From the NCBI GenBank assembly GCA_049319825.1, contig JBMORT010000009.1:131349-195348 (forward strand): DNA of 64,000 nt, given 5' to 3'. Numbering within the stretch: the stretch's first letter is position 1; every line of letters starts with the position of its first letter. The position numbers were made by a program, and so were the translations under genes. The DNA is from Patescibacteria group bacterium (GTDB lineage Bacteria > Patescibacteriota > Patescibacteriia > UBA11705 > DATKZF01). The notes beneath the pieces were generated by a model. It ran no database searches. It had not been told where the DNA came from and saw nothing but the letters and a program-made list of their open reading frames with translations. Below are positions 40,248 through 49,003 of the stretch, piece by piece.

Positions 40248-40516
40248 TTTCGCGTTTTTTAATTTAAGAAGGCCAGCCTCCGCTGAAGCTTCGGCTGGTA
40301 AACTTGAGAAGGCGTAGAGGGAGAGAAGGCTGTTGTATAAACCGAATCTCGAATCTCGAATTTCCAAACCACTTTCGAATTTCGACAAAACGAATTTCGA
40401 GGCATCACCCGGCTAATCTTTGCGTTTCTGATCGCCGGATCAGTGGTTTTCTTCAAAAATTTCCAGTGACCCAAAGGCAGCCGGAAGCGGACAAGATAAA
40501 ATTCTTGAAAAAAAGC

Positions 40517-40544
40517 AAAACGCGGAGAAGTATTCGCGTTTTTT
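40517..40544 (+). terminator. Rho-independent terminator inside the 350-bp spacer preceding the defence island.
   Basis: aaaacgcg-(10-nt loop)-cgcgtttttt. Confidence 0.5.
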
Positions 40545-40600
40545 GAGTTGATTTTTGGGGGGAGGGGTGGTAGAATGGGAGTAAATAATGTTAATAAAAT

Positions 40601-41524
40601 ATGCCAATCTTCAAAATTCAAGGAAAACAGCTTTTACCTATAAAAGAATCCAAAATAGATTTAGAAAAAGATTTACAAAAAATAACAGAGGAAAATTTAG
40701 AGGCTGTTTTCGGTCTAAAATTTGTCAGTTCTGAATTCCAGCTAAATAATCTTCGAATTGACACTTTAGCTTTTGATGAAGAAACAAACTCTTTTATAAT
40801 CATTGAATTCAAGAGAGATAGGAGTTTCAGCGTAATTGATCAGGGTTACGCCTACCTGGCCTTAATGTTAAATAACAAAGCGGATTTTATATTGGAGTAT
40901 AATGAAAATTTAAAAGCTAATTTAAAGCGCGAGAATATTGATTGGTCTCAATCCCGCGTTTTGTTTTTGGCCAATTCATTTACCACGTATCAACAAAATG
41001 CAATAAACTTCAAGGATCTACCTATTGAGCTGTGGGAGGTGAAGAGATACGATAATGAAACGATTTTATATAATCAGTTTAGGGCGGCGGATACAAAGGA
41101 GTCAATAAAAACGGTTTCCAAGAGTAAGACTATTGTAGGAGTGAGTAAGGAGGTAAAAGCCAAAACTGTCTATGATCATTTCAATGATAATTGGGTTGAA
41201 ATGAAAGAACTGTTTGAAAAAATTAGAGAAAAAATTTTGGATTTGGATAATAGAATAATAGAAAATCCAAATCCAAATAATTATATTGGATATAAAATTG
41301 GAAATGCCAATATCTGCACAATCCATCCATACAAATCCAAATTGGGCTTCTCATTAGGAAGAGTTGATAAAGAAGATGTTAAAGATCCAGAAAACTGGGT
41401 AAAAAAGGTCCCTTGGAAAAAGTTTAAATGGCCGAAGTTATGCGTTTTTGATATTAATAGCGAAGAAGATATTGATTATGCTATGTTTTTAATTAAGCAG
41501 GTTTATGATAAATTTTATAAATAA
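40601..41524 (+). CDS. PD-(D/E)XK nuclease-fold protein (NucS/DUF4263-like N-terminal core) with an uncharacterised C-terminal domain. Its stop is 4 nt before the mod start.
   Basis: 'NLRIDTLAFDEETNSFIIIEFKRD...VIDQGYAYL' matches the D...(D/E)-x-K plus downstream Q/Y pattern of restriction-endonuclease-like folds. Confidence 0.5.
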   Translation: MPIFKIQGKQLLPIKESKIDLEKDLQKITEENLEAVFGLKFVSSEFQLNNLRIDTLAFDEETNSFIIIEFKRDRSFSVIDQGYAYLALMLNNKADFILEYNENLKANLKRENIDWSQSRVLFLANSFTTYQQNAINFKDLPIELWEVKRYDNETILYNQFRAADTKESIKTVSKSKTIVGVSKEVKAKTVYDHFNDNWVEMKELFEKIREKILDLDNRIIENPNPNNYIGYKIGNANICTIHPYKSKLGFSLGRVDKEDVKDPENWVKKVPWKKFKWPKLCVFDINSEEDIDYAMFLIKQVYDKFYK

Positions 41525-41527
41525 TAT

Positions 41528-43492
41528 ATGAATGAAAATTTTTATACCAAACTAGAAAAACTTCTAAAAAAAGACAATCGCTTTATTGATCAAGATGGAG
41601 ATTTATTAAAAAGCGAAGTGATTGATAAAGCGTATAAAGTTGATGAAAAATTAATTGAGTTTTTGATTTCTGATAAAGATGTTAAAAACAAATTTTTCAG
41701 TAAAATCAAAGATGTTCATGTCTTCAATATCAATGATTTTGTGTCTTATATTCAGGACAAGCATTTCTTAAATGATTCTTACACCAAATACAAAAACAAA
41801 ATCGGTTTAACAATAGATGGCAAGTTTCTAAAAGAGCGCGATGAAGTGGCTCTTGTTTGGCCTTTCAAGGATTGCGTGCTTGAAGGTGGCATGACTAAAG
41901 AAGATCAGAAGCGAAAAGAAATATTTTTCAATGAAATTTTAGCGCAGGATGAAATCGATAAATTGTTGGCGCCAAAGGTTTTAACTAACTGGAAAAGATA
42001 TACGCAGGATGGGGAGAAGGAGGTTAAGGAGTTGAAGAGGGATAAGGATGGCACAATTAATGAGAATTTAATTATCAAAGGCAATAATCTTTTGGCTTTG
42101 CATTCATTAAAACAGGAGTTTCAGGGAAAAGTGAAATTGATCTATATTGATCCGCCGTATAATACAGGAGGAGGTGATGAAACGTTTACTTATAACAATA
42201 ACTTTAAGCATTCAACATGGTTAACATTTATGAAAAATAGATTGGAAATTGCAAGAAACTTTTTAACCGAAAATGGTTTTATTTCAATTGCAATTGACCA
42301 TTATGAGATGTTTTACCTAGGTGCTTTATGTGATGAAATATATGGAAGAGAAAATAGACTTGGTGTGATTTCGGTTGTTCATAATGCCGCTGGTAGAAGT
42401 GATGATAAATTTTTTGCAACTTCCAATGAGTATATGTTTGTGTATGCTAAAAATTGGCAAAAATGCGTGTTAAAGAATTTTGAAATAGGGGAAAAACAAT
42501 TAAAAACTTTTAAATATAATGATGATATTTCTAAATATAGATTAATTCCATTAATTAAAAGTGGTGTCGCCTCAACAAGAAATGCACGTCCCAAACAGTT
42601 TTATCCTATTTATATTAACAAAAAGTTGGATAAGGTGTATCTATCAAAAAATAAAAATTATGTTGAGGTATTACCAATAGATAAAAATGGAATTGAAAGA
42701 GTATGGAGAAACAGCCCAGCTCGATTAAGTGAGAAAATAAAGAATAATGAAATTGTTATTAAGAAGGATGCAAATGATAAGATAGTAATTTATTATAAAC
42801 ATCGAATTACAGATTATAAAGGTGTAAAGCCGAAAACGCATTGGGAAGATCCCAAGTATAATGCCTCTACATATGGAACGAAATTACTGGCTAATTTAAT
42901 CGGTGAAGGAAATGTAAGTTTTCCAAAATCGATTTATACCGTAATAGATCTACTTAAAATAACAACAGATAAACAGGATTTGATTCTAGATTTTTTTTCT
43001 GGGAGTGCTACAACAGCCCATGCAGTTTTAGAATTAAATAAAATAGATAATGGAAATAGAAAATATATTTTAATCGAACAATTAGAGCGTCATTTAGATA
43101 CAGGTATAAAAAGAATTGTTGAAGTAATGAAAAAGTTTAACAAAGAAAAAACTTTATTCAATAAAAAATCGTTGGATTTTATTTACTGCGAATTAATGAA
43201 ATACAATGAGGCATTCATAGATAATATTCAAACAGCCAAAGACGCCAACGAATTATTAAAAATCTGGGGAGAAATGAAAGAAAAAAGTTTTTTGAATTAC
43301 AATGTGGATTTGAAAAGGTTTGATGAGACTATTGATGAATTTAAAAAATGTTCATTGAATAAGCAGAAAGAAGTTTTATTGGAAATACTAAATAAAAATC
43401 AACTTTATGTGAATTTGAGTGAGATGGGGGATGGGGAGTTTAAAGTTACGCAGGGGGATAGGGGGATGAATGAGGAGTTTTATAGAAAATAG
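41528..43492 (+). CDS. mod: Type III restriction-modification Mod subunit (N6-adenine DNA methyltransferase).
   Basis: 'LIYIDPPYNTGG' (motif IV DPPY), upstream SAM-binding region, long C-terminal target-recognition region. Confidence 0.85.
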   Translation: MNENFYTKLEKLLKKDNRFIDQDGDLLKSEVIDKAYKVDEKLIEFLISDKDVKNKFFSKIKDVHVFNINDFVSYIQDKHFLNDSYTKYKNKIGLTIDGKFLKERDEVALVWPFKDCVLEGGMTKEDQKRKEIFFNEILAQDEIDKLLAPKVLTNWKRYTQDGEKEVKELKRDKDGTINENLIIKGNNLLALHSLKQEFQGKVKLIYIDPPYNTGGGDETFTYNNNFKHSTWLTFMKNRLEIARNFLTENGFISIAIDHYEMFYLGALCDEIYGRENRLGVISVVHNAAGRSDDKFFATSNEYMFVYAKNWQKCVLKNFEIGEKQLKTFKYNDDISKYRLIPLIKSGVASTRNARPKQFYPIYINKKLDKVYLSKNKNYVEVLPIDKNGIERVWRNSPARLSEKIKNNEIVIKKDANDKIVIYYKHRITDYKGVKPKTHWEDPKYNASTYGTKLLANLIGEGNVSFPKSIYTVIDLLKITTDKQDLILDFFSGSATTAHAVLELNKIDNGNRKYILIEQLERHLDTGIKRIVEVMKKFNKEKTLFNKKSLDFIYCELMKYNEAFIDNIQTAKDANELLKIWGEMKEKSFLNYNVDLKRFDETIDEFKKCSLNKQKEVLLEILNKNQLYVNLSEMGDGEFKVTQGDRGMNEEFYRK

Positions 43493-44326
43493 AAATTATA
43501 TGCAATTTGCAAGAAAAACAATAAATTTTCTTACAAATATTATTACAGGAAAAGATGGTGACGATCCTCGCTTTCCGCGATACAAAAAAGGTCACGAACT
43601 TGTTAGATTCTTTAATGACTTTGGGTTTAATGATATATATGGAAAAAGCTTTTCTTCAAGATGGCAATACACTGAACAAAGACTACTGGAATTGAATAAT
43701 AATAATCAAATTGAAAAAGCAGTTGAACATTTCTTAAATCCAATAAATTTCGTGAATGATAATGAATTACTAAATTTATGGATTCAAGAATTGAATGAGT
43801 ATTTAGTTTATGATAATTATCAAATAAAAATAGAAAATAAAAAAATAAAAATTTTTTCAACTGGTGATACAAAAATACATATTGATAGTACACCACAAAT
43901 CGATAATGATTTTGTAAAGGAAAATATTGAAAAGTGTGACGATAAAATTGGCAGAAATGATTTTTCTGGTGCTATTACAAACGCCAGGGCCCTTTTAGAA
44001 GATGTCATGATTTATTTATACAACGAAATAACTAATACAGAATTTAAATATAATGGTGATTTGCCAGCTTTATACAAAAAATTGAGTAAAAATTAAATTT
44101 ACATCCTGAAAATATTGCGAATAATGATTTAAAAAGTGTTTTATCTGGATTGTTTTCTATTATTAATGGGATTTCAGGTTTTTCTAATACGGTTAGCGAT
44201 AGGCATGGTAAAACATCTAAATTACATAAACCGGATAAGCATCATGCGGTTTTGGCAGTAAATACAGCAAAGACCATGTCTGAGTTTTTAATCAATTCAT
44301 ACGAAAAACAATATCAGCGAAATTGA
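43470..44326 (+). pseudogene. AbiJ-like abortive-infection (HEPN/Abi_C) gene, interrupted. The 208-codon N-terminal part ends at TAA 44094-44096 and the Abi_C-like C-terminal part continues in another frame (44099-44326).
   Basis: The C-terminal fragment translates 'LKSVLSGLFSIINGISGFSNTVSDRHGKTSKLHKPDKHHA', an Abi_C-type R/N...S-D-x-H motif. The frames are offset by one nucleotide across the stop. Confidence 0.45.
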
Positions 44327-44450
44327 TATACAAAATATTATAAATGAAAATCCATGGATAATAGACATTTTTTTTGCTTTTATTGCTGCAATAATTGCAC
44401 TTGTATTAGAAGGGAATTTCCATTATTTAGGTGAAATTTTTGGACGATTA

Positions 44451-45227
44451 TTGTCATACTGGCGCAATTTGCGAGATAAATATTTAACTTTTACATTTAC
44501 ATATAAGATTGGTATTTTTAATCAAATTGAATGGATTGAAGATAAGGAAGTTAATAGGTCATGGACAGATATAGCACCAAGCCAATGGAAAAAAATATTC
44601 GCTGAGGGGAATTTGAATAGGGGTAGAATTAAATTTAAAAATAGGATGAAATTGCTCTTTATAAATTCATATAGTGTTATTTTAAATCCCTATGGAGGAG
44701 TATATCCAGAAAATAATCTTGGAAAAAACGAAACGTTAAATAAGATATTTAGGTATGTTAAAAATGGAGGCATTTTTGTTAATGTTGCCGATGTGCCAGG
44801 ATATTATGCATATAACAATAAATCAAAAAGAAAAATTGAAACAGGCTTGGCTCTCTATGATCCATTTCGTCTAGATGAAATAATTTCTTTTAATTCAGTA
44901 CCATTTATCAAGGAATTATGTCTAAAGATAATTGGAACATATATAGAGGTAGAACATAATGGAAAATTAAAATTGATTCCATTTAAAGATGAGGATTTTG
45001 AAATTGAAATAGAAAGAGCTGTTAAATCCTCAAATAACACTGACGCAATATATAAATGGATTGATTTCAATGGAGAAAAAATCACTGCGTTTTTTATAGC
45101 CCAATATGGCAAAGGTTATTTTATCATTTCGTTATTAAAGTTAAATACGGAGAAAAACAAGGAAATATCACAAAAAATTATCGAAAACATTAAAATATAT
45201 TTAAAAATTATTAATAGAAAAACATAA
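44451..45227 (+). CDS. Hypothetical protein between mod and res (TTG start). The in-frame upstream sequence is open back to 44292 and encodes a TM-like segment with no ATG/GTG/TTG.
   Basis: Intact 258-codon ORF with no recognisable motif. The upstream open frame overlaps the end of the Abi_C fragment. Confidence 0.35.
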   Translation: MSYWRNLRDKYLTFTFTYKIGIFNQIEWIEDKEVNRSWTDIAPSQWKKIFAEGNLNRGRIKFKNRMKLLFINSYSVILNPYGGVYPENNLGKNETLNKIFRYVKNGGIFVNVADVPGYYAYNNKSKRKIETGLALYDPFRLDEIISFNSVPFIKELCLKIIGTYIEVEHNGKLKLIPFKDEDFEIEIERAVKSSNNTDAIYKWIDFNGEKITAFFIAQYGKGYFIISLLKLNTEKNKEISQKIIENIKIYLKIINRKT

Positions 45228-45228
45228 A

Positions 45229-47784
45229 ATGTCAGATAAATTTTTATACGAAGATTATGATGCTATTGTTAGGCATGGATTTCTTAATACAAAAATCCCT
45301 GATTTTATTGTTGAAAATTTAAATCCAGATTTTAAGTTGAGGGATTATCAAATTGAAGCATTTGCCAGATTTTTAAATTATCAAAGTTACGAAACTCCCG
45401 AAAGAACGAACACTCATCTCCTCTTCAACATGGCCACCGGCTCTGGCAAAACATTAATCATGGCCGGATTGATTTTGTATTTATATGAGCAGGGATATCG
45501 GAATTTTTTATTTTTTGTAAATTCTACCAATATCATTGAGAAGACCAAAGATAATTTTTTAAATAACCTTTCAAATAAATATTTATTCAATCAAAAAATA
45601 TTTTTCAGAAATAAGCAGGTTAAAATTAATAAAGTTGATAATTTTGACGGTGTCAGCGACAAGGATATTAATATATGCTTTACCACCATGCAAAAACTCC
45701 ACGGTGATCTGCATAATGAAAAGGAAAATTCTATTACCATTGAAGATTTTAAAGATCATAAGATTGTTTTAATTTCAGACGAAGCTCATCATGGCCAAGT
45801 CCAAACTAAAAATATACAAAAAGAAATATTTGAAAAACCGAATTGGGAAAATACAGTAATAAAAATATTTACTCAAAGTCCGGAAAATATTCTATTAGAA
45901 TTCACTGCAACCGTAGATTACCAAGATAAGAATATTGTTGAAAAATATCGAGATAAAATTATTTTCAGATATGAATTAAAGGAATTCAGAGATGCGGGAT
46001 ATTCAAAGGATGTTGAACTATTGCATACGGATACGGATAGGCCGGATCGAATTTTACAAGCAATTATTTTAAGTCAATATCGTCAAGAAGTATCCAGTAA
46101 GCATGGGATATATCTAAAACCAGTCATTTTATTCAAAGCCCAAAATACCATCGCTCAATCTGAAGAAAATAAAAAGCTTTTTCATGAAATTATTGATAAT
46201 TTATCCGTTAAAGACATTGATAAAATTAGAAAACAAACTGATGTTGAGGTCTTACAAAAAGCTTTTCAGTTTTTTAAGAATAATAAAATCACCGATTCAA
46301 TTTTAGTTAAAAAATTAAGAGACGGATTCGCAGAAAACAAATGCTTAAGTGTTAATGAAGAAAGAGAAAAAGAAGAATATCAGCTGTTGCTTAATTCTCT
46401 TGAAGATAAAAATAATCAGATCAGAGCTATTTTTGCTGTCCAAAAATTAAATGAGGGCTGGGATGTGCTTAATTTATTCGATATTGTTCGGCTATATGAA
46501 ACCCGCGACGGCAAAGCAAATAAACCAGGTAAAACCACTATCTCAGAGGCTCAGCTGATTGGCAGAGGCGCTCGTTACTGGCCATTTGCTTTGAATGATG
46601 AACAAGATAAATATAAAAGGAAATATGATGAAGATTTAAAAAATGAATTAAGAATTCTGGAAGAATTGCATTATCATACTCATCATGAGGTAAGATATAT
46701 AAGTGAAATAAGAACAGCATTGAAAGAAAAAGGTCTTATTGATGAAAATGAAATTGAGGTTGAATTAAAATTAAAAGAAATTTTCAAAAATTCAGATTTT
46801 TATAAAAAAGGAATTGTTTATGATAATGAAAGAAGGAAAAGAAGCTATGAAAAAGTGAAAAAGATTGAAGATCTAGGTGTAACTAAGAAAAATATTACTT
46901 ATAATGTCTTAACCGGAGCTGGCAAAGAAGTAAAAGTCTTTGACGATGAAAAAAAAGAGATAAAAGATTTAAAAAAATCTTCAAAAGATATTAGTTTAAC
47001 TGAAATTCAACCTCATGTTATAAAAAATGCTTTGGCTAGAAATGAATTTTTTACTTTCGAGTCTTTGAATCACTATTTTCCTGAATTAAAGTCTATCAAT
47101 GAATTTATTGATAAGGAAATGAGCAAGTTAAACATTACTTTTCGAGGAAAAGACTTAGACAATTTAAGTAATACTAATAAATTTCATGCCGTTTTAGCAT
47201 TGTTGGAACAGATTGAAAAGGAGATTAAAGAAAATTTGACTGAATATGTGGGGACAAAATTTGAACCGAAGCAAATTAATACTGTTTTTTCCGATAAAAA
47301 AATTAAGATTAAAAAAGATTCTGAAAAATTAGATGGCCAAAAAGATTTAGTCGCTGATAAGGATTGGTATGCTTTTGATGCGAATTATGGGACTAGTGAA
47401 GAAAAGGATTTAGTTGTTTTTATGAATAATCATCTTACTGAGTTAAAGAAACATTTTAAGGAAGCTTATTTGATTAGAAATGAAAGGCAATTGAAATTAT
47501 TTAATTTTAATGACGGGCAAACATTTGAACCTGACTTTTTGCTATTTTTACTTGATAAAAATGAAAAAGGTATAACATATCAATTATTTATAGAACCAAA
47601 AGGCGAACATTTAAAAGAGCATGATCAATGGAAAGAAGATTTTTTAAAGGAAATTACAGAAAAGTATAAAGGAAAAGTTTTGACTTTTACAAAAACCAAG
47701 AAATATAAAATAATTGGCCTGCCATTTTATAATAGTGCGAATGAAAACGAATTTAAGGAACATTTATTTACTTCTATTCAATAA
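45229..47784 (+). CDS. res: Type III restriction enzyme Res subunit (SF2 helicase + C-terminal nuclease).
   Basis: Motif I 'NMATGSGKTLIMAG', motif II 'LISDEAHHG', motif VI-like 'QLIGRGAR'. C-terminal 'LFIEPKGEH' PD-(D/E)XK-like. Confidence 0.8.
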   Translation: MSDKFLYEDYDAIVRHGFLNTKIPDFIVENLNPDFKLRDYQIEAFARFLNYQSYETPERTNTHLLFNMATGSGKTLIMAGLILYLYEQGYRNFLFFVNSTNIIEKTKDNFLNNLSNKYLFNQKIFFRNKQVKINKVDNFDGVSDKDINICFTTMQKLHGDLHNEKENSITIEDFKDHKIVLISDEAHHGQVQTKNIQKEIFEKPNWENTVIKIFTQSPENILLEFTATVDYQDKNIVEKYRDKIIFRYELKEFRDAGYSKDVELLHTDTDRPDRILQAIILSQYRQEVSSKHGIYLKPVILFKAQNTIAQSEENKKLFHEIIDNLSVKDIDKIRKQTDVEVLQKAFQFFKNNKITDSILVKKLRDGFAENKCLSVNEEREKEEYQLLLNSLEDKNNQIRAIFAVQKLNEGWDVLNLFDIVRLYETRDGKANKPGKTTISEAQLIGRGARYWPFALNDEQDKYKRKYDEDLKNELRILEELHYHTHHEVRYISEIRTALKEKGLIDENEIEVELKLKEIFKNSDFYKKGIVYDNERRKRSYEKVKKIEDLGVTKKNITYNVLTGAGKEVKVFDDEKKEIKDLKKSSKDISLTEIQPHVIKNALARNEFFTFESLNHYFPELKSINEFIDKEMSKLNITFRGKDLDNLSNTNKFHAVLALLEQIEKEIKENLTEYVGTKFEPKQINTVFSDKKIKIKKDSEKLDGQKDLVADKDWYAFDANYGTSEEKDLVVFMNNHLTELKKHFKEAYLIRNERQLKLFNFNDGQTFEPDFLLFLLDKNEKGITYQLFIEPKGEHLKEHDQWKEDFLKEITEKYKGKVLTFTKTKKYKIIGLPFYNSANENEFKEHLFTSIQ

Positions 47785-48256
47785 AAAACTATGCCCCCCT
47801 TCACCCCCAAAAGCAATAAACCCTATAAACTCTCCCGCACCGAGCATTAATCATGGAAAAGGGAGCATGAAACATGGAGCATGAATTACTAGGACCGTAG
47901 GACAGTATGGCTGTAGGATTAAATTGATTTAAAAAGCGTGAATGAGAGCCCGTTTTCGGGGTAAATTCACGGGTTATTGACAAAAATGCGTGATTAAGCG
48001 CATTTTAATTTGAATTTAATAATTTTATTAAAATTTCAAACTAAAAAAACAGACATATATTTACATAATTTAGCGTAAAAAGCGATGTTTTAAATTTCTT
48101 GTAAGGTGTAATTGACAAGAAACTAAAGGCCATTTAAATTTTAATTTAATAAAAAAAGCACCTGTCTGCGGTTTATGAATTGACCGCTAGGGAGCCGAAG
48201 CCCCCACAAGTGCTGATTATAATATATCAAATATTGGTGAAAATGTCAATTGTTAC

Positions 48257-49003
48257 ATGTTAATAAATAATTCTATGCCTCGCAATCTTTTTGACCCCAA
48301 AAATAAAAAGCCATTTAAATTAAGCCGCACCAAGCTCGAGGACTTTGTCCGATGCCCCCGCTGTTTTTATTTGGACCGCAGGCTGGGCATATCAAAGCCG
48401 AGCATGCCGCAATTCAATTTGAACATTGCCGTTGACCATCTGCTGAAAAAAGAATTCGACATTCACCGCGTAAAGGGCATCGCGCATCCGCTCATGAAGG
48501 CGTATAAAATCAAAGCCGTGCCGCTGGCTGATGACCGCCTGGACGAATGGAGAAATAATTTCCGCGGCATTCAATATTTTCACAAACCAACCAATCTCAT
48601 CATCTTCGGCGCCATCGACGACATCTGGCTTAATTCCAAAGGCGAGCTGATGATCGTTGATTATAAATCAACCAGCACTGAAAACGAAGTGACGCTCGAA
48701 GGCGAATGGAAGGCCGGCTACAAGCGGCAGGTGGAGATTTACCAGTGGCTTTTCAGAAAAAACGGCTTCAAAGTCTCTGACACCGGATATTTCGTCTATG
48801 CCAATGGCCGAAAAGACCGAAAGGCGTTCGACGCCAGGCTGGAATTCGATGTCACTGTCCTGCCGTATAAAGGCAATGACCAATGGGTGAGTAAGGCCAT
48901 CAGAGACGCGCATAAAGTCCTAATGTCCAACAAAATCCCCGCAGCCGGCAAAGGGTGCGAGTATTGCCTGTATCGGAGGAAGGCGAAAAGGGCGGAAAAA
49001 TAA
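48257..49003 (+). CDS. PD-(D/E)XK nuclease family protein, Cas4/RecB-like (DUF83-type) with Fe-S-type cysteines; standalone.
   Basis: N-terminal 'CPRCFY'. Core 'IFGAIDDIW...MIVDYKST'. C-terminal 'GCEYCLY'. Confidence 0.55.
   Translation: MLINNSMPRNLFDPKNKKPFKLSRTKLEDFVRCPRCFYLDRRLGISKPSMPQFNLNIAVDHLLKKEFDIHRVKGIAHPLMKAYKIKAVPLADDRLDEWRNNFRGIQYFHKPTNLIIFGAIDDIWLNSKGELMIVDYKSTSTENEVTLEGEWKAGYKRQVEIYQWLFRKNGFKVSDTGYFVYANGRKDRKAFDARLEFDVTVLPYKGNDQWVSKAIRDAHKVLMSNKIPAAGKGCEYCLYRRKAKRAEK

Follow-up and report, generated by a model that had tools for sequence, protein, structure and literature searches.

How should an operon for restriction and modification (R-M) of Type III be understood when other genes are found inside it, between the modification gene mod and the restriction gene res? 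This question is raised by the genome of a Patescibacteria group bacterium, in a stretch of 64,000 nucleotides (nt) of contig JBMORT010000009.1 (assembly GCA_049319825.1, positions 131,349 to 195,348; NCBI locus tag of the source metagenome-assembled genome (MAG), ACOZBH_05260), which is called the window below. The first-pass annotation of this DNA described an AT-rich defence island and considered both a composite or multi-component variant of the Type III system and a Type III system that captured an abortive-infection (Abi) module and is decaying. In our opinion, the locus is probably a horizontally acquired Type III R-M operon from a clade in which the mod-res junction serves as a slot for cargo, with two cargo genes damaged and one nuclease-fold gene, here called S18, in front. 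Six open reading frames (ORFs) lie on one strand with almost no spacing from 40,601 to 47,784. The ORFs described earlier were all found in place, with 3 nt between S18 and mod and 1 nt between the ORF called U258 and res, and the domains proposed for them agree with the matches to Pfam and PADLOC profiles. The genes and gene remnants are as follows (lengths in amino acids, aa).

40601..41524, + strand: S18, a NucS-like PD-(D/E)XK nuclease domain with a C-terminal DUF5655 (YdhG/YjbR-like) domain, 307 aa
41528..43492, + strand: mod, Type III N6-adenine methyltransferase, 654 aa, intact
43470..44096, + strand: N-terminal part of AbiJ, a 208-aa ORF with a stop created by a frameshift (PADLOC AbiJ, 2e-18, profile positions 3-207 of 281)
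44088..44092, + strand: run of five A residues (A5), one base short of an intact AbiJ
44093..44326, + strand: C-terminal HEPN (Abi_C) part of AbiJ in the +1 frame (Pfam Abi_C, 1.6e-11; PADLOC AbiJ, 4e-7, profile positions 230-280)
44292..45227, + strand: open frame of U258, with the first canonical start, TTG, at 44451 and an ORF of 258 aa at 44451-45227
45229..47784, + strand: res, superfamily 2 (SF2) helicase with a C-terminal PD-(D/E)XK endonuclease, 851 aa, intact

The core of the operon is a Type III pair. Mod matches the Pfam families N6_N4_Mtase (PF01555, 5e-27) and TypeIII_RM_meth (PF12564, 2e-20) and the PADLOC profile MTase_III (2e-144), and has the DPPY motif at residue 208, as a Type III Mod should. 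In the same way, Res matches ResIII (PF04851, 6e-34) and REase_III of PADLOC (5e-140, residues 21-846) and shows the full series of motifs of a Type III Res: GSGKT at 71, DEAH at 184, TAT at 226, QLIGR at 442 and PD...ExK at 768-791. Residues 1-652 of Mod align with relatives in one piece, residues 1-850 of Res are 65-70% identical to metagenomic relatives, and both genes appear intact since each aligns end to end as a single piece. The DPPY motif together with TypeIII_RM_meth in Mod, the helicase motifs and C-terminal PD...ExK in Res, and the position of mod 5' of res on one strand are shared with the canonical systems EcoP15I and EcoP1I. The window differs from these systems in having 1.74 kb of foreign coding DNA between mod and res and an additional nuclease-fold gene 3 nt 5' of mod. 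Order and strand are canonical, but res does not directly follow mod; the gap of 1,736 nt (43493-45228) bears out the earlier statement that foreign genes separate the two. Canonical adjacency is kept in the distant relatives L102, L104, L106 and L109 (loci used for comparison are designated by L and a number) and in the Thioclava plasmid pTElox9.

Scanning of metagenomes with the window's Res gave 28 loci with 45-77% identity, and those with Res at least 59% identical were taken as the clade containing the window. Among the clade loci showing both genes, 15 of 16 have 0.76-2.8 kb between mod and res, and the two are adjacent in L093 only; in four further clade loci no mod is present in the 1.2-1.9 kb visible 5' of res. 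The more distant relatives L102, L104, L106 and L109 have mod and res side by side. On a neighbour-joining tree of Res, a single clade unites the window and the other cargo-bearing loci, with L093 nested inside and the adjacent outgroups outside. The gaps are filled to 85-100% with ORFs of the same strand; over about 20 loci, these ORFs make up about 19 clusters unrelated to one another. The cargo recognized in the relatives includes the following.

L108, L094, L096: Shedu SduA (6e-133)
L108, L094, L099, L100: DUF3800 protein
L087: AbiJ, intact, 410 aa, with AbiJ_NTD3
L091, L101: PD-Lambda-5 A with a D12 methylase
L092: Old/GajA/AriA-like ATPase-TOPRIM protein
L085: AriAB-like protein
L086, L090: 928-aa ATPase with a Ppl-like C-terminus
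L095: Schlafen-AlbA2 with HATPase_c_4
L097: RiboL-PSP HEPN protein
L111: NucC/DUF6602 nuclease

Several cargo proteins gave no match in profile searches, and about one third of the cargo families in the 20 loci have no Pfam or PADLOC match. Genes nested in the same orientation are thus seen in the window and in 15 related loci showing both mod and res, every cargo gene being on the + strand, and the cargo varies and includes known autonomous defence systems.

The boundaries of the slot are exact. Homology of Mod (...DKEFKV..EDK.LNKEFY) extends to the stop codon, and homology of Res (MPQQFLYEQLD, conserved even at the nucleotide level) begins at the ATG; between these two points nothing is common to the loci and all sequence is locus-specific. 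The last cargo gene usually stops 1-6 nt from the res ATG, as it does in the window. The type of cargo is independent of the Res tree: the sister loci L091 and L092 carry PD-Lambda-5 and Old, respectively. Directly before its own res ATG (~1730-1775), L103 carries GTGTCAAATTAATTT, a remnant of the res start of L108 type, ATGTCAAATCAATTT. Judging from the sequence, this second res 5' end looks like a recombination footprint. The exact junctions, the cargo that does not follow the tree and the remnant in L103 together indicate repeated exchange, which we infer to have proceeded by recombination in the conserved flanks of mod and res. In L094, L103 and L108, res is preceded by the sequence TTATCCACA, which equals the consensus of the DnaA box.

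Arrangements of this kind are known from other hosts. Genes embedded in Type I R-M, BREX, DISARM and Hma systems are mostly defence genes, and 96.7% of them are co-oriented (Payne et al., bioRxiv 10.1101/2024.01.29.577857); the classic example of embedding is PrrC, found in the EcoprrI locus of Type Ic (Payne et al., bioRxiv 10.1101/2024.01.29.577857; PMC3710099). The loci studied here resemble these systems in that co-oriented cargo lies within a DNA-modification system, between its core genes, consists in large part of known autonomous defence genes, together with unknown ones, and varies between homologous hosts. They differ in the host, which is of Type III (mod-res) and lies outside the analysis of Payne et al., and in that a single exact junction is occupied in nearly all members of one clade. 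In the literature searched, reviews included, we came across no account of cargo carried between the mod and res genes of a Type III system. The novelty is the pattern at the level of the clade; the copy in the window is an ordinary, partly decayed example of it.

A small protein of about 149 aa occurs in four of the related loci (L108:8652-9101, L094:5678-6019, L095:4808-5260 and L087:10897-11328), the copies being 34-89% identical and without a match in Pfam, PADLOC or PHROG. It follows Shedu in L108 and L094 and Schlafen-AlbA2 in L095; in L087 it is located 3' of res, behind an ORF of 500 aa. The protein has the look of a small partner or regulator shared by several defence genes.

Another short ORF, of 145 aa, lies between mod and res (L120:5537-5974) on the Chryseobacterium sp. 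plasmid pA2BH1 (NZ_MN657149), which comes from a cultured organism and has a Res 45% identical to that of the window. The only relative of this ORF detectable among the loci compared (35% identity) is found directly 5' of mod in L104 (L104:5622-6182), and the accessory may move between positions around Type III operons. Among the neighbours of the outgroup loci are a Rep_1 replication gene (L106:7022-7978) and a DDE transposase (L102:1125-2372), and L104 is IMG/VR UViG_3300028627_000416, a contig classed as viral. These outgroups, in which mod and res adjoin, reside on mobile elements.

In the window, the first gene of the slot is a broken AbiJ. Its start overlaps the end of mod by 23 nt, and both domains are present but split; the interruption of an AbiJ-like gene overlapping mod, pointed out by the first-pass annotation, comes down to a single 1-nt frameshift in the A5 run at 44088-44092. 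Insertion of one A anywhere in 44087-44093 results in a single AbiJ ORF of 285 aa, in which positions 1-82 of the 83 of Abi_C are matched (E-value 6e-19), which raises the score from 44.6 bits to 68.3; as it stands, the C-terminal part contains a 58-aa ORF at 44150-44326. Since the frameshift lies inside the HEPN domain, AbiJ is probably inactive in the window. The region of the A5 run is identical in the Logan assembly of SRR32167788. An exact look-up of the 208-aa fragment showed that it is not on record.

The repaired protein has the full Abi_C domain and an AbiJ-type N-terminal region, like AbiJ, the abortive-infection HEPN protein of Lactococcus (PF14355, Abi_C), from which the window copy differs in being split by the frameshift. 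The textbook HEPN motif is Rx4-6H, and the corresponding R...H motif of the repaired window protein, R245-x7-H253, is one residue longer. R-M operons are known to harbour AbiJ solos and further HEPN or Abi genes (PMC3710099).

The second cargo gene, U258, gave no match in Pfam, PADLOC, NCBIfam or PHROGs. A profile search retrieved 464 cluster representatives, 186 of them below 1e-30, and the members of this family are normally 314-342 aa long, with two N-terminal membrane helices followed by a globular domain that has the invariant motifs NPYGGVYPE and GG(I/V)FVNVAD(I/V)P. The alpha/beta fold of GATase1 was recognized in the family. Compared with proteins of the class I glutamine-amidotransferase-like, ThuA-like and GH42 middle-domain fold, the U258 family is distinguished by its own motifs, by the membrane-helix pair and by the lack of the amidotransferase Cys-His-Glu triad, no invariant or near-invariant Cys or His being present among 26 sequences.

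The window copy is shorter than its homologues at the 5' end. No ATG, GTG or TTG occurs in the frame between 44292 and 44451, the single hydrophobic stretch 5' of 44451 aligns with the second helix of the homologues, and the initial methionine and the first helix are absent, being replaced by sequence that overlaps the 3' end of AbiJ. A non-canonical start was considered; ATT, ATA and ATC are the only candidate codons before TTG 44451, and truncation is preferred because the first transmembrane helix is absent from the alignment in any case. We read U258 as a 5'-truncated copy of a putative membrane-anchored GATase1-like protein, cut at the AbiJ junction. As the cut coincides with this junction, AbiJ would be the later arrival. 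With AbiJ frameshifted and U258 deprived of its start and first helix, the locus agrees with the earlier suggestion of a Type III system that took up an Abi module and is now in decay.

Homologues of U258 are found in mixed surroundings: in a Type I R-M island (L001), beside a Type III-A CRISPR locus (L004), in elements with an integrase and a replication gene (L117, L118) and between cysS and tmk (L003); among the contexts examined, none was located between mod and res. These mixed contexts characterize it as an accessory, often mobile gene. Some homologues (P0285, P0286, P0289, P0295 and P0296) are fused behind N-terminal multi-helix membrane regions of 300-550 aa, in which rhomboid-like H..HxxxN and GxS motifs were noticed by eye.

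The state of the two cargo genes bears on an explanation that we consider unlikely, namely that the cargo acts as a guard, for which PrrC in the Type Ic EcoprrI locus is the paradigm, being silenced by the Res-Mod complex and released when an anti-restriction protein of a phage disables the R-M system. The embedding would then express a physical and functional coupling in addition to joint transfer. The Old/PARIS-like ABC ATPases and the AriAB-like protein in the slot are members of families for which firing in response to anti-restriction proteins, e.g., Ocr, has been reported (Payne et al., bioRxiv 10.1101/2024.01.29.577857), and the close approach of the cargo stop to the res ATG in most loci (1-6 nt) agrees with such a coupling. 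However, Shedu, AbiJ, PD-Lambda-5 and Old are known elsewhere as autonomous systems, and the extreme diversity of the cargo speaks against a protein-protein fit specific to a single R-M complex. In the window itself no guard operates, because both cargo genes are broken.

We return to the captured operon and to its origin. The block at 40.6-47.8 kb has a content of guanine plus cytosine (GC) of 0.278-0.306 in 1-kb intervals, compared with a mean of 0.438 +/- 0.032 and a minimum of 0.388 in the 56 intervals outside the island; seven intervals of the 64 kb have a GC below 0.36, all of them within 41-48 kb (z ~ -4.6). The AT-rich dip described earlier is therefore significant in the windowed profile. 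On the left, GC falls from 0.49 to 0.24 between 40,500 and 40,700, with the drop at ~40,550-40,600, and the spacer up to ~40,550 is host-like; on the right, GC rises at ~47,800 and the spacer is mosaic. The Res genes of the relatives of this R-M have a GC of 0.22-0.36, all low. The GC gap to its surroundings and the uniformly low GC of these relatives support a horizontal acquisition of the block. The following elements were found at its edges.

40548..40576, + strand: promoter-like site, TTGATT, a 17-nt G-rich spacer and TAGAAT (9/12 match, with a TG extension)
47796..47812, - strand: inverted, degenerate partial copy of the G-run motif of the left promoter, 12 nt past the res stop and pointing into res
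47983..48006, + strand: terminator-like hairpin 3' of res, in the right-hand spacer

These data also speak to a plain juxtaposition of defence genes by chance, in which the mod-res position would have no special meaning. Each gene of the island is also found independently elsewhere, defence genes generally cluster in islands, and the window cargo is decaying as neutral passengers would. Nevertheless, this explanation seems very improbable to us: the same junction is filled in all but one of the 16 clade members showing both genes, the boundaries are exact, the orientation is uniform, non-coding DNA is almost absent, and the distant relatives are adjacent. The first-pass annotation had been prepared to accept chance if the inserted genes never recurred beside mod and res and the GC dip was insignificant; as it turned out, AbiJ recurs in the slot of L087, S18 stands before the Type III pair of L036, and the dip is significant. 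The recurrence of neighbourhoods that it proposed to look for holds for S18 before another Type III mod-res pair (L036) and fails for U258, which does not recur beside mod or res.

The position in front of mod deserves separate consideration. In seven relatives, RadC (JAB and UPF0758_N) ends 5-16 nt before the mod ATG, and the short intergenic sequence is conserved. The gene is located at L086:3485-4198, L087:2313-2999, L091:2097-2780, L094:1837-2508 and L111:2104-2838, and its end is also visible in L090, L097 and L101. The window contains no radC, and S18 occupies that position. Since S18 stands where relatives have RadC, the leading position is variable too. RadC may belong to the mobile unit or serve as a favoured anchor for insertion.

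The PD-(D/E)XK gene reported to be tightly packed before mod is indeed there. S18 corresponds over its full length to the PADLOC candidate PDC-S18 (PDLC04945; E-value 1e-103), residues 1-302 being aligned with positions 1-301 of the 302 in the profile, and Pfam matched DUF5655 and NucS_C weakly. Residues D54, E69 and K71 are invariant, which gives the D...(D/E)xK signature of the PD-(D/E)XK superfamily, and the structure model (predicted local distance difference test, pLDDT, 85.3) consists of two domains. The NucS-like fold with the invariant D...ExK is shared by PDC-S18/DUF5655 proteins, NucS and Shedu-type nucleases, but NucS and Shedu are without the C-terminal YdhG/YjbR-like domain of S18. 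The PDC candidates, PDC-S18 among them, stem from genes located within BREX, DISARM and Type I R-M systems (Payne et al., bioRxiv 10.1101/2024.01.29.577857); no paper using the name PDC-S18 was found in the literature searched.

The S18 family is very large and well conserved (6195 matches, many of them 60-72% identical), and its homologues are abundant in Patescibacteria. In a census of 80 genomic loci with S18 homologues, an R-M-like gene was present within 4 kb in 21, which is a lower bound, and S18 directly led an R-M operon, with the next gene starting at most 59 nt downstream, in six. These next genes are Type I HsdR/HsdMS (L006, L014), a Type I methyltransferase with an AriA/Old-like protein (L011, L021), an IIG-like methyltransferase (L017) and, in L036, the mod-res pair of a distant Type III system. 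Large neighbours on the same strand include N6_Mtase (12), ResIII (10), Methylase_S (5) and HSDR_N (5), as well as AlwI, GmrSD, SduA and BrxL. A relative of the window's Mod or Res lies within 10 kb of S18 in at most 5 of the 80 loci, and relatives of both in L036 and L068 only; mostly, S18 occurs alongside Type I systems or without any R-M. By this comparison, S18 accompanies several types of R-M operon facultatively and is not a subunit of the present system, to which it may add a second nuclease activity.

It is extremely improbable that the five genes make up one obligate multi-component system, in which S18, AbiJ and U258 would serve the Type III enzyme as subunits or regulators. The tight packing on one strand with spacers of 3 and 1 nt and an overlap of 23 nt would agree with such a system, as would S18 directly before the mod-res pair of L036 and AbiJ in the slot of L087. 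Against it, neither S18 nor U258 is found in any of the 28 Res relatives, the slot holds some 19 unrelated types of cargo, S18 keeps mostly to Type I systems or to places free of R-M, homologues of U258 never stand beside mod or res, and two of the supposed subunits carry damage, in contrast to the intact mod and res. The multi-component variant considered earlier is not supported in view of the same count of relatives and the rarity of a Mod or Res relative near S18. An assembly artefact, in which a low-GC fragment of another organism was joined into a Patescibacteria contig, is scarcely credible, for although GC changes abruptly at both ends and the source is a MAG, the island is carried by two assemblies (the NCBI MAG contig of 259,546 bp and a Logan contig of 137,537 bp from SRR32167788, identical to the window over 16.9 kb across both junctions), S18 homologues abound in Patescibacteria, and the GC transitions fall in intergenic DNA beside the promoter and the terminator-like hairpin, as for an integrated island.

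The mechanism proposed for the captured Type III operon is as follows. Mod would methylate the sites of the host, and the Res-Mod complex would cut unmethylated incoming DNA; as expected of a Type III enzyme, cutting would be ATP-dependent and take two unmethylated sites in inverse orientation, and methylation would concern one strand. Unrelated, self-contained defence genes would be carried in a slot extending from the mod stop to the res start and be replaced through recombination in the conserved 3' end of mod and 5' end of res; cargo in this place would be co-transcribed and co-transferred with the R-M genes and would provide a second layer of immunity. In the window, the promoter at 40548 (TTGATT-17-TAGAAT) would probably drive a single transcript that covers S18, mod, the remnants of the cargo and res, as the spacing suggests. 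U258 would be the older cargo, which lost its 5' end where the AbiJ cassette joined. AbiJ, an RNase toxic by design, would have been inactivated by the frameshift, the GATase1-like gene remaining truncated.

Several points weigh against this explanation. The relatives are short unbinned metagenome contigs, and the 28 were collected via six peptide patterns, which makes the frequencies rough. All functional statements are inferred, and PDC-S18 is an unvalidated candidate. The frameshift in AbiJ could be an assembly error; the two agreeing assemblies may share reads. It is the position of U258 that suggests a defence role for it; the gene never appears in another mod-res slot, and its homologues also occur among housekeeping genes (L003). 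An empty site in a related genome was sought via the Cas4-like gene flanking the island and was not found, because this gene is ubiquitous in Patescibacteria and its neighbours are non-syntenic.

This flanking gene (window 48257-49003, + strand), directly to the right of the island, encodes a solo Cas4-like PD-(D/E)XK protein and has a normal host GC. The protein is among the most conserved in Patescibacteria, with more than 8000 matches at or below 1e-30 that are 60-76% identical. Its homologues adjoin S18 in L047, are near S18 in L048 and L015 and directly follow Type I hsdR in L001. Defence islands may favour the surroundings of the Cas4-like gene as a place to land.

The two spacers that bracket the island exist as described, but they are not full of hairpins and direct repeats beyond what chance would give: they fold slightly better than shuffled sequences (z -1.42 and -1.74), and their repeats are tiny (CGAATCT x 2.7). 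Structured RNA in the spacers was set aside on these folding values (z -1.4 and -1.7), and tRNA and other non-coding RNA genes, sought at the island borders, were not found. A general repeat search for terminal inverted or direct repeats as island ends gave AT-rich chance matches only.

The promoter-like site lies 25 nt 5' of the S18 ATG, at the left edge of the AT-rich block, and a near-identical TTGATT / G-run / TAGAAT element precedes an unrelated gene in a Falkowbacteria genome (L031:12685-12714). The pattern TTTTGGGGGN4GGGG has four overlapping matches at three sites, against 0.09 expected, the third site being within a coding region. The alignment of the two G-run copies as an inverted repeat is weak, its score being reached by 23 of 500 shuffles. 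Because of this weak alignment, and since the left copy is of a promoter type also present in L031, the motif was not accepted as a terminal inverted repeat; the inverted copy after res could be an antisense promoter, a vestige or a product of chance. A phage origin of the block was also considered and rejected: a relative is found on one viral contig only, and S18 and U258 have no match in PHROGs.

Summarizing the comparison of loci, we tentatively suggest, as a possibility about which we are more doubtful than about the origin of the window's operon, that the mod-res junction, and perhaps the position before mod too, is a general site of cassette exchange and that Type III systems are a further embedding host. 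The unannotated cargo (the U258 family, proteins of 394, 339, 248, 244 and 216 aa and the partner of about 149 aa) would then represent new anti-phage genes, some of which might be triggered by phage inhibition of R-M.

As for the window itself, an intact Type III R-M system, an intact candidate nuclease and two dead passengers carry a modest practical message. The comparative data support PDC-S18 as an accessory of several types of R-M operons. Should the slot prove general, loci of Type III R-M would offer a new and cheap space in which to search for unknown defence genes by 'guilt-by-embedding'. For Patescibacteria with their small genomes, the locus illustrates how layered immunity can be gained as one transferable operon, in which toxic or costly layers such as AbiJ decay first and the R-M core is kept.

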